DNA from: a virus
Lineage: Duplodnaviria; Heunggongvirae; Uroviricota; Caudoviricetes
Reading direction: 5' to 3' (one strand)
IMG/VR virus record: IMGVR_UViG_2690316099_000001
Length of the DNA: 6,962 nt
Shown here: positions 1,782-6,773 of the stretch, one piece after another
How the letters are laid out: every line of letters begins with the position of its first letter
How positions within the stretch are numbered: position 1 is the first letter of the stretch
Notes under the pieces: generated by a model
What the model was told of the DNA's origin: nothing
Databases searched by the model: none
Seen by the model: only the letters and a program-made list of their open reading frames with translations
Position numbers and translations under genes: made by a program

Positions 1782-2564
1782 TTATGCTGCCCTTTTCATT
1801 GCGAATGGAACGCGAACAAACACGATCTCTTTATAGCAGCGGCAGTTTGGCAGCTCGCCCGCGTGGCCGGTCATGCCGTCCAAAGTTGGAGGTGAATCCC
1901 AGCGGACGAATTTACCTTTCATGTGATCGTGGGAATCTCGGACATCGCCATCATCGGCTGTACGCCAAATATAACCATCCGAGCCAATAGCTATCGCTCG
2001 GGCCATATCCAGCGCGCCCGTTGCTCTTCCCAGTTCCGTTCGGGCAATCAGATCGGCCCTAGACTTAGCAACATCGCCGGTAGATGCAATCTCTTTAGCA
2101 AACTGCTCCGCCCGACCACCGGTGACAACAGCCTCTATCGCTTTGTTCTGGATGTCGTACACCCTGTCTGCGGCCTCGAGAGGCAGAGATTTGATGTACT
2201 TGACCTGTTCGGCGATGATGGATTGCATCACCTGGCCCACAGGAGCGCTTTCCACAAGATTGCGGAGCTCGCGACTGATGTTCTTGCTGTGTTGCCGCCA
2301 AACTTTCTCGTTCTGCCGGGTTAGGTCCGCAGTAAAGTTTTCCGCGACCTTTGTCGCCCAGGGGGTGATGATTTCACTGTAACGCTCCAGCGCCGCAATA
2401 ATTTCCGTGATACTGTCATTTGAACCATCGTAGCGACCATTTACGATGTCTCCGACCGCCCTCGCTATCCTGCGTAGGCTGGTTCGATACCGGATTTCCG
2501 CCTGACGGCTCCTGCGGTTCGTCATCAGGTTCGCCGATGCCGGGCGGCGCTTCATCTTCGGCAT
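1782..2564 (-). CDS. phage head morphogenesis protein, Mu F / SPP1 gp7 family
   Basis: 260-aa ORF. The C-terminal region (WRTADDGDVRDSHDHMKGKFVRWDSPPTLDGMTGHAGELPNCRCY) matches the conserved core of minor head / F-like proteins. GAGGA lies about 8 nt upstream of the ATG at 2564. The 5' end overlaps the portal 3' end out of frame, so the true start may be internal (for example ATG at 2525). Confidence 0.8.
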   Translation of the reverse strand: MPKMKRRPASANLMTNRRSRQAEIRYRTSLRRIARAVGDIVNGRYDGSNDSITEIIAALERYSEIITPWATKVAENFTADLTRQNEKVWRQHSKNISRELRNLVESAPVGQVMQSIIAEQVKYIKSLPLEAADRVYDIQNKAIEAVVTGGRAEQFAKEIASTGDVAKSRADLIARTELGRATGALDMARAIAIGSDGYIWRTADDGDVRDSHDHMKGKFVRWDSPPTLDGMTGHAGELPNCRCYKEIVFVRVPFAMKRAA

Positions 2565-3498
2565 TCTCGATGTCCTCGTCGGTAATGGATGCCCCGATGC
2601 CGGTTACGTCAGAATTTTCTCGCAAATCAGTCATAGCGGCTTTCAGTGTCATCAGACCATCACCCAGCGCCGTACTGATTGCGTTGGTGGTGTTTAACGC
2701 CACCGTTGAGCGATCGACATCAGACATTTGCCAGAGCGGGTTAAACTCAAACGTGAAATCGTCCGGCAGCGGCTTGCCAAGTTCCGAACGATGCATGATG
2801 TCCAGTATCCGCCGCACCGGAAGACGTAAACGCCTCTCCTGCAACGAACTGATGCGATCGTAATAGTTGGCAAGGTCTGCATCACCGGTAGAAAATCCTT
2901 TCGGGGACTGTCCGAACAACCGCACCAGTGGGATACCAACAGCGCCACTAATCTGTTCTACAAACTGCGAAAGGATGTCATCCAGACCACTGAAGCTGTA
3001 CTGATGGGTTTCAAACTTATCCCGCGAGTCCATGAGCGTCATGCCTTCATTACTCTGGAACTGTCGAATCAGGTCGATATTCTTCAGCAACGCTTCATAC
3101 GCAGGACCACCAAGTGCGATAAGCTCGCGTAGCTTCTCCACGCTGTAGGTACGCAAATGCGCCTTGTAGACCAGCTGCGCCGCGCCGACAGTAGCGCTGT
3201 CGAACGCGGTAAGACGATCCCAGATACGCTCTACAACCGACATTCCCCATTCGTTCTCGGTCATCTTCTGCTGAAATGGCAACGTGACGCCATCAAAGCG
3301 AATCAGGCGACTGTGATGAATGCGCCAGGCAGGAATTCCCGTTGCTGTGGTCACCACATCGTAAAACTCAGGTTTACCCAGGTCCGGCCCCATATCTTTA
3401 ATGCGGCGGGTCAGTGCCGGGTCGACCATCCAGCGGTCGAGCGGGAGAATCCCCTTAAACTTGCCCTTACCGATGGTTTCGGGTCGCAGCGGGGTCAT
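2416..3498 (-). CDS. phage portal protein (largest uninterrupted ORF; C-terminal about 360 aa of the portal reading frame)
   Basis: 360-aa ORF lying between the large terminase and the Mu F-like gene, the canonical portal position. It has an acidic C-terminal tail (DEDIENAEDEAPPGIGEPDDEPQEP). ATG at 3498 is preceded by GAGGGG. The same frame is open upstream to an ATG at 3882 apart from two TAG codons. Confidence 0.75.
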   Translation of the reverse strand: MTPLRPETIGKGKFKGILPLDRWMVDPALTRRIKDMGPDLGKPEFYDVVTTATGIPAWRIHHSRLIRFDGVTLPFQQKMTENEWGMSVVERIWDRLTAFDSATVGAAQLVYKAHLRTYSVEKLRELIALGGPAYEALLKNIDLIRQFQSNEGMTLMDSRDKFETHQYSFSGLDDILSQFVEQISGAVGIPLVRLFGQSPKGFSTGDADLANYYDRISSLQERRLRLPVRRILDIMHRSELGKPLPDDFTFEFNPLWQMSDVDRSTVALNTTNAISTALGDGLMTLKAAMTDLRENSDVTGIGASITDEDIENAEDEAPPGIGEPDDEPQEPSGGNPVSNQPTQDSEGGRRHRKWSLRWFK

Positions 3499-3882
3499 TG
3501 GTGCCTACCCCTCAATCATGATGAAACCCACCGCGCCGCCGTAGAGGCGCGACCATTTCAGCACGTCATTCAGCGCATCCCAGATTTGCAACTCATCCAG
3601 TTGTGATTCGAGAATGCCACGATCTTTTGCATCAATTTCCGAAGTGATGCGAATGCCTTTGCGGGTCATATCATCCGGGATAGCATCGACTGCTTCGCCG
3701 ATGATCTAGGATGAACGATAGGACCATTCCACCAGCATGCGGTTACGACTGGTGAAATTAGCCCGGTAGGTGGATGCTGAGTGCTGGTTAGGTGTCTGCA
3801 TCCCTACGCGGGCAATAAAATTCTCATAACCATCAGCTGTGGCCTGCACAGTTCGCCGCAGGGCTTGTTTGTTTCGTGCCAT
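3499..3882 (-). pseudogene. N-terminal part of the portal reading frame, separated from the main ORF by two in-frame TAG codons (3708..3706 and 3507..3505)
   Basis: ATG at 3882..3880 shares one base with the terL stop (TGA 3884..3882) and has GGGGAG upstream. Hand translation in this frame gives MARNKQALRRTVQATADGYENFIARVGMQTPNQHSASTYRANFTSRNRMLVEWSYRSS, then TAG, then IIGEAVDAIPDDMTRKGIRITSEIDAKDRGILESQLDELQIWDALNDVLKWSRLYGGAVGFIMIEG, then TAG, then AP and the MTPLRPE start of the 360-aa ORF. There is no frameshift. Confidence 0.6.
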
Positions 3883-5285
3883 CAGGCCTGTCTCCCCAGC
3901 TGTTCCCAGATATCCAGCGATGTATCGATTGGCGCGAAGGCCATAATGAATGCATCAGCAACGTTTGGTGACGGTATCTCGCGTTTTGCGAGGTCTTTTT
4001 TACTTTCGACCATCACACGTCCGTTACGGTCGAAATCACGATGAGGTGTTGTCAGTTCCAGTTTCAGCTTTTCAAGCAACGGACAACGAGAATCTATGCT
4101 GATCAGCTCATCCACAGGATACTGTTCTCCGTTGTTAATGGCGTTAAACGTATTTCTGAAACGGTCAGCCACCAGCCACCATGCCTGAGCCTTAAGATTT
4201 GCGAAAAAGTCTTTGTTGGGGATGCCGTTGTACTCGTCATCTGGCTCATGCACACCAGCACCGGCGTTAAACCTCTGGTAATTCACACGTCGCGCGTATG
4301 CGTTCTCGCTCTTCCGGTCAGCGTTAATTTCAGAGAATTTAGCACCGGCAGACGCACCAACACCGATAGAGTCGTAAACAATATCTGCTTCACGCTCCAG
4401 CGCCGCCTGATAAGTACGCTGGCAGCTCTTCAGTAATTCATCTTCTTTGGCCTTCCATTCGTCGGCCCAGAAAACAACGGATCCGTGACGGTAAACGTTA
4501 GCGCACTTATCTGTACCACTGTCAGCCACGTCAAAGCCAATACGCTTTCTTCCACTGGGTTCGAAATTTAACGTTTTGTGCGCATCCACTGCGGCTTCTA
4601 TCCAAGACAGTTTGATGATTGCCGCATCATCATCAGACTCCGGAACGCCCTCATACACATGTTTAAAACCATCCGGATCACGGCGTCGCGCCGCGTCGAT
4701 AACCTTAAGCATGGTGTCAGACAGAAACGGATTTTCGTCATAGTTAATTTTGCGGATGAGAGTGCCTTCGGGCGGATCAACAACGAAGTTGCGCCAGACG
4801 AAATCAGTAACAAGTCCGGGGTTGAATATGAACCAGCATTCCGAACCCTCTTTACGGATCGTTGGCTCCAGAATTTTCCACTGGTATTCCGTCAGTGCGT
4901 GGGCTTCTTCCAGCCACAACACATCGATCCCCTCCAGTGACTTAATTTCTTCGATGTTGCGCCATAATCCATAAAAAACAAATTCCGAGCCAGTAACCCG
5001 GTTAATGATTTTGTTGTTCAGAATACGGAAACGGTGCCGCAGACCAAACCTGTCTATCTGAATTTTGAGCAGGGTATACACCGACTCTTCGATTTTATTC
5101 TGGATCTGACGGGCACAACAAAAACGCAGGGTGTATTTATTCGACAGAAATATGGCAATGCCAGCGGCATCCCATGATTTTGACGATGACCGACCACCAT
5201 AAAGCACTTTGTTACGTGCCCGCATAGTCCAGAAACTACGTAAAGCCGGATTCAGCGTCGGTTTGGATGTCAGAGTAGAAGTCAT
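3882..5285 (-). CDS. terL: terminase large subunit
   Basis: Long ORF (maximal extent 3882..5393) with a P-loop-like motif near the N-terminus (VLYGGRSSSKSW), a Walker B-like DVLWLEEAH, and a C-terminal nuclease-like region with conserved acidic residues (GFDVADSGTD, VADAFIMAF). The first 50 or so codons of the maximal ORF overlap the terS 3' end out of frame, so the start is more likely internal. Chosen start is ATG 5285 (GGAGAG about 10 nt upstream); alternatives are ATG 5312 and ATG 5225. Confidence 0.8.
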   Translation of the reverse strand: MTSTLTSKPTLNPALRSFWTMRARNKVLYGGRSSSKSWDAAGIAIFLSNKYTLRFCCARQIQNKIEESVYTLLKIQIDRFGLRHRFRILNNKIINRVTGSEFVFYGLWRNIEEIKSLEGIDVLWLEEAHALTEYQWKILEPTIRKEGSECWFIFNPGLVTDFVWRNFVVDPPEGTLIRKINYDENPFLSDTMLKVIDAARRRDPDGFKHVYEGVPESDDDAAIIKLSWIEAAVDAHKTLNFEPSGRKRIGFDVADSGTDKCANVYRHGSVVFWADEWKAKEDELLKSCQRTYQAALEREADIVYDSIGVGASAGAKFSEINADRKSENAYARRVNYQRFNAGAGVHEPDDEYNGIPNKDFFANLKAQAWWLVADRFRNTFNAINNGEQYPVDELISIDSRCPLLEKLKLELTTPHRDFDRNGRVMVESKKDLAKREIPSPNVADAFIMAFAPIDTSLDIWEQLGRQA

Positions 5286-5820
5286 TGAGGTCACGCTCTC
5301 CATTGCCATCATCAATACCTGCATCACGGCGAAGACGATCAGCCTCCAGAGACACCTTATCAGTGGCGGCCTTGCGGTAGGCTGTATCAGCAAATATTTT
5401 TCCTACCGTCGCAAGCGTGCCAACGATGGACTCAATACGAACTGTATTGCGCATCATTGCTTTCTCGGCGGCGCTGATATTTTCAATCAGCATCTTCCTT
5501 TCCTGGTCCCCATTAGCATCTTCCAGCGACACCAACCACCGACCAATATTCTCTGCAGCGACAAGGTTGTTAGCACGAAGGCGAAATAATTCGTCCTCGA
5601 GCGTCAACGCTTTAGCGTCCTCTATCACCTCATCTTTGAGCAGAAGGCGACGGGCATAACCACCGTGTTTTAATGCCTGCTGGTTACCGGGTTGGAATGG
5701 GTTAGTCGGGGGATCGGTACGCATTCCGCGTATCGGTTTCGTATCCGGTGTAGATTCTGTTTTTAGTTGCGTACTTTTTTGTGTAAGGCCAGTAATGGCA
5801 GGCTTTCTGCTGGTACGCAC
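5236..5820 (-). CDS. terS: terminase small subunit (start uncertain)
   Basis: ORF immediately upstream of and overlapping terL, containing the motif NPFQPGNQQALKHGGY typical of many small terminase subunits. Stop is TAG at 5238..5236. The listed start is GTG at 5820, but the frame stays open upstream to the N block at 5895; an internal ATG at 5724 is an alternative start. Confidence 0.65.
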   Translation of the reverse strand: MRTSRKPAITGLTQKSTQLKTESTPDTKPIRGMRTDPPTNPFQPGNQQALKHGGYARRLLLKDEVIEDAKALTLEDELFRLRANNLVAAENIGRWLVSLEDANGDQERKMLIENISAAEKAMMRNTVRIESIVGTLATVGKIFADTAYRKAATDKVSLEADRLRRDAGIDDGNGERDLNDFYSDIQTDAESGFT

Positions 5821-5872
5821 TTTCCTTTTTTGCGTACCATTTTTGCAAACCTGCGTACCGCCACTGCGTGCC
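5716..5872. repeat. cluster of TGCGTACC / GGTACGCA octamer repeats with flanking T-tracts (candidate pac or TerS-binding site, or operator array)
   Basis: Copies at 5716-5723 (GGTACGCA), 5767-5774 (TTGCGTAC), 5812-5819 (GGTACGCA), 5831-5838 (TGCGTACC), 5852-5859 (TGCGTACC) and a variant at 5865-5872 (TGCGTGCC). Two direct copies are 21 bp apart. 5812-5838 forms an inverted pair GGTACGC...GCGTACC. By eye I found only one other full octamer in the window (3148-3155). Confidence 0.5.
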
Positions 5873-5895
5873 CAACCAAGCTTTTTGGCCCTCTT

Positions 5896-5945
5896 NNNNN
5901 NNNNNNNNNNNNNNNNNNNNNNNNNNNNNNNNNNNNNNNNNNNNN
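5896..5945. other. 50-nt run of N (masked or unresolved sequence) inside the 5' region of the small terminase locus
   Basis: Direct observation of n characters. Confidence 0.95.
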
Positions 5946-6018
5946 GTAACGCCGTATTTCTCGCCTATATCACGGAGGCTAAGGACTCCGGCCCGGTATG
6001 CCGATTCGATGGCCTCCC
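5946..6018 (-). other. unmasked island between N blocks; minus-strand frame encodes a helix-turn-helix-like peptide (EAIESAYRAGVLSLRDIGEKYGVT), possibly the small terminase N-terminal DNA-binding domain or a separate small HTH protein
   Basis: Only one of the three minus frames is open across the island, and its hydrophobic pattern and the GEKYGV turn resemble HTH DNA-binding segments. It is out of register by one nucleotide with the terS frame across the 50-nt N block. Confidence 0.3.
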
Positions 6019-6247
6019 NNNNNNNNNNNNNNNNNNNNNNNNNNNNNNNNNNNNNNNNNNNNNNNNNNNNNNNNNNNNNNNNNNNNNNNNNNNNNNNNNN
6101 NNNNNNNNNNNNNNNNNNNNNNNNNNNNNNNNNNNNNNNNNNNNNNNNNNNNNNNNNNNNNNNNNNNNNNNNNNNNNNNNNNNNNNNNNNNNNNNNNNNN
6201 NNNNNNNNNNNNNNNNNNNNNNNNNNNNNNNNNNNNNNNNNNNNNNN
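6019..6247. other. 229-nt run of N (masked or unresolved sequence) covering the divergent intergenic region between terS and the DedA-like gene
   Basis: Direct observation of n characters. Confidence 0.95.
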
Positions 6248-6263
6248 AGAAGGAAAGACATTG

Positions 6264-6773
6264 ATGGAGTGGATAAATGCTTTGATGAACTATTTTGTAC
6301 TTCATCCATATCGCCTATGGGGGCTTCTTTTTATAATAGCGTTCACAAAATCCACTTTACTCATTTCGGCGATATTGCCACCAGCATCAATTATGATGGC
6401 CACTGTAATTACAGTCAGCAAGACGACTCTTTCACCATGGGAAGCTGGAATCACGGTCATGAGTGGCGCATGGTGCGGTACTATCGTTAATTACCATCTT
6501 GGTATAATAATTGGGCATATCCCTCAACTTGCATGTATAATATCAAGCCGTTCCAATACAATAGAACGGGTTCGCCTTCAGTTGCAAAATAACTCTGTGT
6601 CAATACTTTTCACTTCGCGCTTTATCGCCGTGCTGCGTTATATTGCTCCTTTGGTGGCAGGAATGTTGCAACTTCATCCAGTGAAAGTGTATACAGTGAG
6701 TCTGATTTCAGCTGCTAGCTGGTCAGCACTTTATGTTGGTAGTTTTAGCTTCGTGTTGCCTTTTTTTAGCTAA
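6264..6773 (+). CDS. DedA/TVP38-like small integral membrane protein
   Basis: ATG at 6264 is preceded by AAGGA about 9 nt upstream; TAA at 6771..6773. The 169-aa product is very hydrophobic with several predicted transmembrane segments, and the segment SRFIAVLRYIAPLVAGM resembles the DedA-family signature (R-F/Y-x3-R-x-h-P-x-h-A-G). The gene is visibly AT-richer than the phage genes. Confidence 0.5.
   Translation: MEWINALMNYFVLHPYRLWGLLFIIAFTKSTLLISAILPPASIMMATVITVSKTTLSPWEAGITVMSGAWCGTIVNYHLGIIIGHIPQLACIISSRSNTIERVRLQLQNNSVSILFTSRFIAVLRYIAPLVAGMLQLHPVKVYTVSLISAASWSALYVGSFSFVLPFFS

Follow-up and report, generated by a model that had tools for sequence, protein, structure and literature searches.

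An octamer array inside the small terminase gene of a lambdoid prophage covaries with the TerS helix-turn-helix and is a likely pac site

The small terminase gene (terS) of a lambdoid prophage carries, within its own coding sequence, a cluster of short DNA repeats. We found it in a stretch of tailed-virus DNA of 6,962 nucleotides (IMG/VR record IMGVR_UViG_2690316099_000001); "the window" refers hereafter to this whole stretch. The repeats are concentrated in terS, they are conserved as DNA words rather than as a peptide, and their sequence changes together with the helix-turn-helix (HTH) of the TerS protein encoded by the same gene. From these comparisons of sequence, we judge it likely that the array consists of cognate sites for the N-terminal HTH of TerS and that it serves as the pac site of a headful-packaging lambdoid prophage.

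Layout of the array and its distribution along genomes

The exact octamer, GGTACGCA or its reverse complement TGCGTACC, occurs five times in the window; 0.14 copies are expected, and none of 200 shuffled sequences reached five. Four of these copies, together with two that have one mismatch, fall in the interval from 5716 to 5872 (Table 1), which agrees with the original prediction of five to six copies in about 160 bp. The finer features of that prediction are also present: two direct copies stand 21 bp apart (5831 to 5852), an inverted pair (5812-5819 with 5831-5838) is visible in the sequence, and so are T-tracts between the copies.

Table 1. Features of the window discussed in the text. Positions are those of the window.
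Feature	Position	Strand	Description
terS (small terminase) CDS	5236..6035	-	phrog_370 match; 254 codons in L001; 5' end approximate
HTH part of terS	5880..6019	-	N-terminal, three predicted helices, residues ~6-43; AlphaFold2, weak domain matches
Linker part of terS	5692..5859	-	Lys/Thr/Gln/Arg-rich, residues ~48-103; holds the array; predicted disorder (AlphaFold2)
Direct copy 0	5865..5872	-	degenerate, 1 mismatch; GGCACGCA on coding strand, TGCGTGCC on window +
Direct copy 1	5852..5859	-	GGTACGCA on coding strand; codons G-T-Q
Direct copy 2	5831..5838	-	GGTACGCA on coding strand; codons G-T-Q; 21 bp from copy 1
Inverted copy 1	5812..5819	+	GGTACGCA on window +, TGCGTACC on coding strand; codons V-R-T
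Direct copy 3	5768..5775	-	1 mismatch; AGTACGCA on coding strand, TGCGTACT on window +; codons S-T-Q; core GTACGCA intact
Inverted copy 2	5716..5723	+	TGCGTACC on coding strand; codons M-R-T
Lone octamer	3148-3155		fifth exact copy, in portal gene
terL (large terminase)	3882..5285	-	PBSX / Terminase_3 family; profile and PDB matches
Portal gene	2416-3882	-	two in-frame stops
DedA / VTT-domain membrane protein gene	6264-6773	+	between lysis cassette and terS
First N run	5897-5945		49 nt
Second N run	6020-6247		228 nt

On the coding strand, the array reads as four direct copies (GGCACGCA, GGTACGCA, GGTACGCA and AGTACGCA) and two inverted copies, both TGCGTACC. It occupies the 5' third of terS, codons ~44-96 of 254, just after the HTH-coding part. 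Direct copy 0 is exact in Klebsiella relatives, where it appears as GGGTACGCA and is read W-V-R. Direct copy 3 is the unit that has been expanded in some alleles as a 12-bp tandem, AAAAGTACGCAA. Inverted copy 1 forms a 9-bp inverted repeat with direct copy 2 and was found in 58 of 58 alleles examined; inverted copy 2 was likewise present in 58 of the 58 alleles with this TerS body. Across 52 distinct 5' gene segments, each comprising HTH and linker, 416 sites yield the consensus G-GTACGC-A-a. Spacing between sites is 8-21 bp in the window's TerS family and 15+12 or 12+13 bp in the HK639-type family.

Does the motif also abound outside terS? A count across the genome had been set beforehand as a test, and it showed clustering in terS; an even genome-wide density was not seen. 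The related Klebsiella phage GZ7 has a complete genome of 42 kb, and seven of its ten copies of GTACGCA lie within 167 bp of terS. Similarly, five of the eight copies in the 50 kb around the closely related E. coli prophage L001 (described below) lie within 142 bp of terS. A pac site is expected to be in or next to terS and to be unique in the genome, and the array, with its seven of ten GZ7 copies in terS, behaves in this manner. The one exact octamer of the window that stands apart is present in L001; as it is absent from the matching place in GZ7, its occurrence is probably due to chance.

The inverted pair has a counterpart in RNA. In the terS mRNA, window positions 5811-5839 (L001 3057-3085) can fold into a hairpin with a perfect 9-bp stem and an A-rich loop of 11 nt, and the 181-nt region around the pair has a folding z of -2.35 relative to shuffled sequences. 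The hairpin is only moderately better than the shuffles, and it follows from the motif itself. An Rfam search of the array region returned no known RNA family, and promoter-like or terminator-like sites are not in excess near the array.

The prophage and the masked stretches

The window is 99.8% identical by alignment to L001, a lambdoid prophage of E. coli strain FDAARGOS_944 that is integrated between ybhA and an integrase. L001 carries a tRNA cluster, a lysis cassette and a DedA gene, followed by terS, terL, and the head and tail genes. The phage genes of the window are all on the minus strand, with terS, terL, portal (Phage_portal_3), Mu F-like head morphogenesis, DUF2213 and cement/minor capsid genes in that order. 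The DedA gene, on the opposite strand, resembles a moron inserted immediately upstream of the packaging genes.

Two runs of N mask the terS start and some of the sequence for the N-terminal domain, and we read the masked sequence from L001. The matching L001 stretches measure 16 and 197 nt, vs. 49 and 228 nt for the N runs; the masks are either not length-preserving or accompanied by indels. The first run covers exactly the recognition helix of TerS, and the helix of the window is thus taken from the 99.8% identical L001. It had been suggested that further copies of the octamer might be hidden under the N block. This proved not to be the case: the masked stretches hold none in L001.

The portal gene of the window has two in-frame stops (G>A at 3707 and C>T at 3507) relative to the intact gene in L001. 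Only five substitutions in 3 kb distinguish the two sequences, and two of the five are nonsense. Judging from these changes, the copy of the prophage represented by the window is probably defective. Because of the two nonsense substitutions, the array may be a relic, or out of use, in this host.

The terS gene and the modeled protein

The location in a small terminase gene that the original prediction had assigned to the array is borne out by a profile search: the minus-strand gene that contains the array in its 5' third matches phrog_370 ("terminase small subunit") with an E of 7.5e-95 over residues 1-252. It is located directly upstream of terL and overlaps it, which is the gene order expected of a small terminase. 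In L001, terS spans 2896-3660 and overlaps the TerL gene (3611-5014) by 50 nt; portal and MuF-like genes follow. As the start codon and the recognition helix of the window's gene lie under N runs, the coordinate of its 5' end is approximate. The Pfam and NCBIfam TerS models gave no match to this protein, and sequence searches detected neither a PDB relative nor any similarity to gpNu1. A Foldseek search of the PDB with the AlphaFold2 (AF2) model of TerS yielded coiled-coil noise alone, with every E above 0.4. The protein's putative identity as TerS is founded on the PHROG profile, the gene order and the architecture.

That architecture was examined in an AF2 model of a protein 97% identical to the window's TerS. 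An N-terminal HTH followed by a helical oligomerization core is expected of a TerS, and the model has this arrangement, although its overall mean pLDDT is only 61. The HTH is predicted to comprise helices 6-15, 20-27 and 31-41 (pLDDT 79-88), and weak Sigma70_r4 / HTH_AsnC matches were obtained for residues 17-41. The recognition helix, as read from L001, is TEGAIRKRAK. In the model, the residues that vary between the classes described below are at the start of the third HTH helix. Residues 48-103 are modeled as disordered (pLDDT ~30, without secondary structure), and they coincide with the array. Two long helices, 104-161 and 165-199 (pLDDT 74-90), come after this linker and would constitute the oligomerization core, as expected. 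Given the predicted disorder of the linker, the array appears to be written into the part of TerS that best tolerates sequence change.

Selection on the motif at the DNA level

At first sight, the copies in the window could be taken for a peptide repeat, as the direct ones are read G-T-Q or S-T-Q and the inverted ones x-R-T. Is it the peptide or the DNA that has been conserved? The terS genes of Klebsiella relatives (87-90% identity) have more copies, some of them in another frame (TGG GTA CGC AAT, CAG GTA CGC AAA). Among the relatives, the core occurs in several frames and in both orientations: TGG GTA CGC, GGT ACG CAA, and, inverted, CGT ACC.

We also resampled the codons, holding the peptide fixed and redrawing synonymous codons from the phage's own late-gene usage in 20000 samples. 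For the window, this procedure gave 0.73 copies of GTACGC, vs. 5 observed (P ~5e-5). The corresponding numbers were 0.79 vs. 8 for GZ7 and 0.22 vs. 5 for HK639, and in neither case did any of the 20000 samples attain the observed count. Third-codon positions in the two largest helix-motif classes, measured on 37 and 22 distinct sequences from different species, were 98-99.5% conserved within the sites and 57-67% conserved elsewhere in the same segment. From these codon patterns, we conclude that selection on the motif acts on the DNA and not on the peptide. A reading of the array as a peptide repeat only was rejected on three grounds: the diversity of frames and orientations, the codon resampling, and the conservation of synonymous sites.

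The number of copies is not constant. In 58 distinct terS alleles from viral contigs, there are 3 to 10 direct copies, and both inverted copies are always kept. The variation in the direct copies is due in part to expansion of the 12-bp unit AAAAGTACGCAA, and the length of the linker tracks the number of motif copies. Two IMG/VR contigs, L076 and L078, illustrate the polymorphism; this unit encodes the peptide KSTQ, and L078 has up to 10 direct copies. Clearly, part of the array grows by tandem slippage of the 12-bp unit.

Natural chimeras of TerS

Whole-protein searches of viral contigs returned close relatives only (84-100% identity). Other TerS proteins share one part with that of the window and differ in another. 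In the window's prophage and the Klebsiella phages GZ7 and Mulock, an HTH of the TEGAIRKRAK type is joined to the phrog_370 body of the window's phage, and the array is of the GTACGC type. Chronis combines a window-type HTH and a GTACGC array with a diverged version of the C-terminal body of the window's phage. HK639, Edno5 and KO-TP1 have a window-type HTH on an unrelated body of ~200-216 residues, and their terS genes nevertheless contain three or four direct copies of GGTACGCA (at codons 59, 64 and 68, and in HK639 also at 90) and a single inverted core hexamer at codon 77 (GCGTAC, encoding V-R). In the Klebsiella phage RothC, the body is that of Chronis from TKPIRGSRT onward, but the HTH is different. 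Here, the GTACGC array gives way to a pair of TGCGAATTCGCA palindromes, 33 bp from each other, and additional TGCGAA(T) half-sites (L087, 598-642).

These chimeras approximate a two-by-two design. The same HTH on three TerS bodies is always accompanied by GTACGC arrays, and a different HTH on the same body (RothC vs. Chronis) by a different array. By this comparison, the motif tracks the HTH of TerS and not the rest of the protein.

A TerS with another HTH is encoded by the Escherichia Stx phage phiSTEC801-Stx1a (L088, ~720-760 and 810-850). In its gene, the same position of the linker holds CGATCATGA, TTGATCATA and CGATCATGA, spaced by 12 bp. These repeats contain GATC (Dam sites) and recall the hexamers of P1 pac. 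The same locus also carries TGCGCAAA twice, 24 bp apart.

Correspondence between recognition helix and motif

The chimeras raise the question of how closely the helix and the motif correspond across a wider sample. An alignment of the HTH region was searched against one genome per species, which furnished 80 prophage loci from Gamma- and Betaproteobacteria; with nine phage loci, the set numbers 89. Five octamer classes account for 79 of these loci. Each has three near-identical direct copies at fixed offsets, with spacings of 15 and 12 bp, and within each class 23.1-23.9 of the 24 positions in the direct octamers are identical. An exact inverted core hexamer is found at a fixed downstream offset in 58 of the 79 classed loci. 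It switches with the class even though the switch alters the encoded residue (ERVL, ERIL, ERQL).

Table 2. Recognition helices of TerS and the motifs found with them.
Recognition helix	Motif	Remark
[ST][ED]GA[IV]RK	GGTACGCA	
THGA[IV]NK	GGTATCCA	
SHTAINK	GGTTTCCA	
SHVAI[NGA]K or SHPAITK	GGTTACCA	
THQAISK or SHTAIQK	GGTTGCCA	
AESGIRR	GGTGCGCA	single example
SDTAIRK	GGTTCGCA	single example
NHATILK	GGTAACCA	single example
AHNTILK	GGTGACCA	single example

Helix type and motif are paired one-to-one (Table 2): over the 89 loci, the center of the GGTNNNCA triple covaries with three residues of the recognition helix. Several apparent exceptions turned out to have the array too, its spacing or frames differing slightly, and among the 89 loci it was missing only in L174, L168 and Y11. 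L174 has an EGAIRKRAK helix without GTACGC copies. L168, from a gammaproteobacterial MAG, has the HTH and lacks the array; as its HTH is followed by unrelated sequence, the protein may not be a TerS. Only ~50-150 bp separate the array from the part of the gene that encodes the HTH, and part of the covariation could reflect this linkage. However, all of the copies within a locus agree with one another, which linkage between helix and array does not explain.

We put forward a more specific proposal, which on present evidence we consider evenly balanced between right and wrong: that TerS residues 31, 32 and 35 specify the central three bases of GGTNNNCA, and that many proteobacterial prophages carry the HTH and the array together as a portable cassette for packaging specificity. 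If the code is true, packaging specificity would be predictable from sequence and could be reprogrammed by a few substitutions. This TerS family would also be a tractable system for studying how an oligomer of the protein recognizes pac by sequence, a problem that has resisted analysis in P22, Sf6 and SPP1. The helix-motif pairs offer direct predictions for binding, structural and specificity-swap work.

Proposed packaging role and alternative readings

What might the sites be for? The large terminase encoded next to terS offers a guide. TerL matches Pfam Terminase_3 (E 3.9e-38) and TIGR01547 (E 2.2e-41), and it matches PDB entry 4idh, Sf6 gp2, with an E of 1.8e-78 over residues 10-449. By these matches, TerL is close to Sf6 gp2 and belongs to a clade of the headful type; presumably it is the enzyme with which TerS works, cutting the DNA and translocating it.

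Sf6 is listed among the headful packagers (PMC9611059). The DNA-binding domains of TerS are displayed around the oligomer, and a model in which DNA wraps about it exists (PMC4856287). Given an Sf6-like TerL and DNA-binding domains so displayed, we read the array as a pac recognition site. The original prediction of a TerS-recognition or pac-type site within terS is supported by the DNA-level selection, the confinement of the motif to terS, its covariation with the HTH, and the Sf6-like TerL; from these, we infer the pac role. In the mechanism that we envision, a TerS oligomer would display several HTH domains, and these would bind G-GTACGC-A-a sites that stand close together in both orientations, with the flanking A-tracts perhaps helping the DNA to wrap or bend. 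The complex of TerS and array would then recruit the Sf6-like TerL, which would cut nearby and start a headful packaging series. Because the sites adjoin the HTH-coding segment, HTH domain and sites would move as one specificity cassette when terS genes recombine. We found no paper on this motif or the helix-motif correspondence, on packaging in HK639 or Mulock, on the termini of this group, or on terS repeat arrays in a literature search of partial coverage; a paper on pac of the T1-like phage TLS proved to have no bearing on the array.

Could TerS bind the array for some other purpose? It might do so through its HTH in order to control terminase expression, either by a roadblock or occlusion within terS or by translational feedback through the hairpin, with the true packaging signal elsewhere. 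The covariation, after all, shows who binds and not why; the sites are inside the terS transcript, and the inverted pair can form the 9-bp hairpin in RNA or DNA. We nevertheless regard this possibility as unlikely. Transcription of the late operon in lambdoid phages starts at a distant promoter, and the neighborhood of the array has neither an excess of promoter-like sites nor a match to an Rfam family. Moreover, the confinement of the motif to terS leaves no other candidate site for the TerS HTH. Finally, in the phages that have been studied, the DNA-binding domain of TerS is the packaging-recognition domain (PMC4856287, PMC9611059).

It is quite unlikely that the array, while still bound by TerS, belongs to a cos-type system comparable to lambda cosB rather than to a headful one. 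In lambda, the HTH of TerS has three R elements in cosB, beside the TerS gene (PMC4856287), and the GenBank record of HK639 opens 50 bp ahead of terS, possibly at a genuine end of the DNA. However, the records of related phages were opened at arbitrary points, at terS or terL by convention, and their ends are therefore uninformative about real termini. The TerL of the window, furthermore, is Sf6-like and of the PBSX / Terminase_3 family, not of the lambda gpA type, and Sf6 is a headful packager; nor did the sequence searches detect in its TerS the gpNu1 similarity that a lambda-type cosB would call for.

Two other readings can be treated briefly. It is very improbable that the repeats are a by-product of a low-complexity linker (GTQ, STQ, xRT) that grows by slippage and has no sequence-specific function in DNA: alleles do differ by whole 12-bp units (KSTQ one to five times) and the linker is predicted to be disordered, but this reading is largely refuted here by the several frames and both orientations of the copies, by the codon resampling, by synonymous positions that are nearly invariant across genera, by the recurrence of the same DNA word, encoded V-R, in an unrelated TerS body, and by its changes in concert with the HTH. 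Equally improbable is an operator or binding array for another phage or host protein, such as a nucleoid protein or the late-gene regulator that the original prediction had offered as its alternative; many regulators typically bind arrays of short repeats, direct and inverted, with A-tracts, and the identity of the binder is deduced from covariation, yet we rejected this candidate since the motif changes whenever the HTH of TerS itself changes, even when the rest of TerS or of the phage differs, and since the array is in mid-gene with no promoter-like excess nearby.

Our preferred reading, a pac site recognized by the HTH of TerS, has some practical bearing. Knowledge of the packaging signal helps to predict which DNA is mobilized by common prophages of E. 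coli and Klebsiella, be it by generalized or lateral transduction or by satellites that mimic the array, and it would help in building vectors that can be packaged.

Comparison with known systems

How the TerS of a headful phage chooses viral DNA is a general problem, and the sites described here are sharply defined by comparative genomics, with domain swaps and at least five helix-motif classes. In P22, pac is a 22-bp asymmetric site in gene 3, and that of Sf6 is in the gene 1 region (PMC9611059). The array resembles these in being a pac signal, putatively, within the TerS gene of an enterobacterial headful phage, and the window's TerL is homologous to Sf6 gp2. It differs from P22, where there is a single 22-bp site and a TerS of a different fold family, in that its signal is a repeated octamer. 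Specific binding of pac DNA by the TerS proteins of P22, Sf6 and SF6 is weak or undetectable in vitro (PMC9611059).

In SPP1, pac (pacL, pacC and pacR) is bound by an oligomer of G1P (PMC4856287, PMC4737164). Like the array, it comprises several recognition sites at the 5' end of a headful phage's TerS gene, with bending by A-tracts and a model in which DNA is wrapped round a ring of HTHs. However, pacL and pacR share no identity, and their recognition is thought to depend on shape (PMC4856287), whereas the sites in the window are identical words with what appears to be a base-specific code.

The cosB region of lambda contains the elements R3, R2 and R1, which are bound by the winged HTH of gpNu1 (PMC4856287). 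The two systems would have in common repeated sites for an N-terminal TerS HTH that adjoin terS, DNA bending, and a recognition helix that sets the specificity. Lambda is a cos phage, and its 16-bp R elements are upstream of Nu1 and are accompanied by an IHF site; the sites in the window are 8-9 bp long, more numerous, inside the open reading frame, and paired with an Sf6-like TerL.

Sternberg and Coulby reportedly described P1 pac as hexamer repeats, TGATCA/G, inside pacA. These hexamers include GATC, and their use is controlled by Dam methylation. The P1 system is similar to the present array in having a cluster of short oligomers in ~160 bp, inside the gene for the recognition subunit of a headful packager. 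The differences are that neither GGTACGCA nor G-GTACGC-A-a contains the GATC that marks a P1-type site, that the proteins are unrelated, and that the array in the window has copies in both orientations and sits in a linker-coding segment after the HTH. By analogy, then, P1 pac is the closest known system in layout and lambda cosB the closest in logic. Short repeated TerS sites in or near terS were already known in kind; the interesting parts of the present case are the recognition code and the cassette-like co-transfer of HTH and sites.
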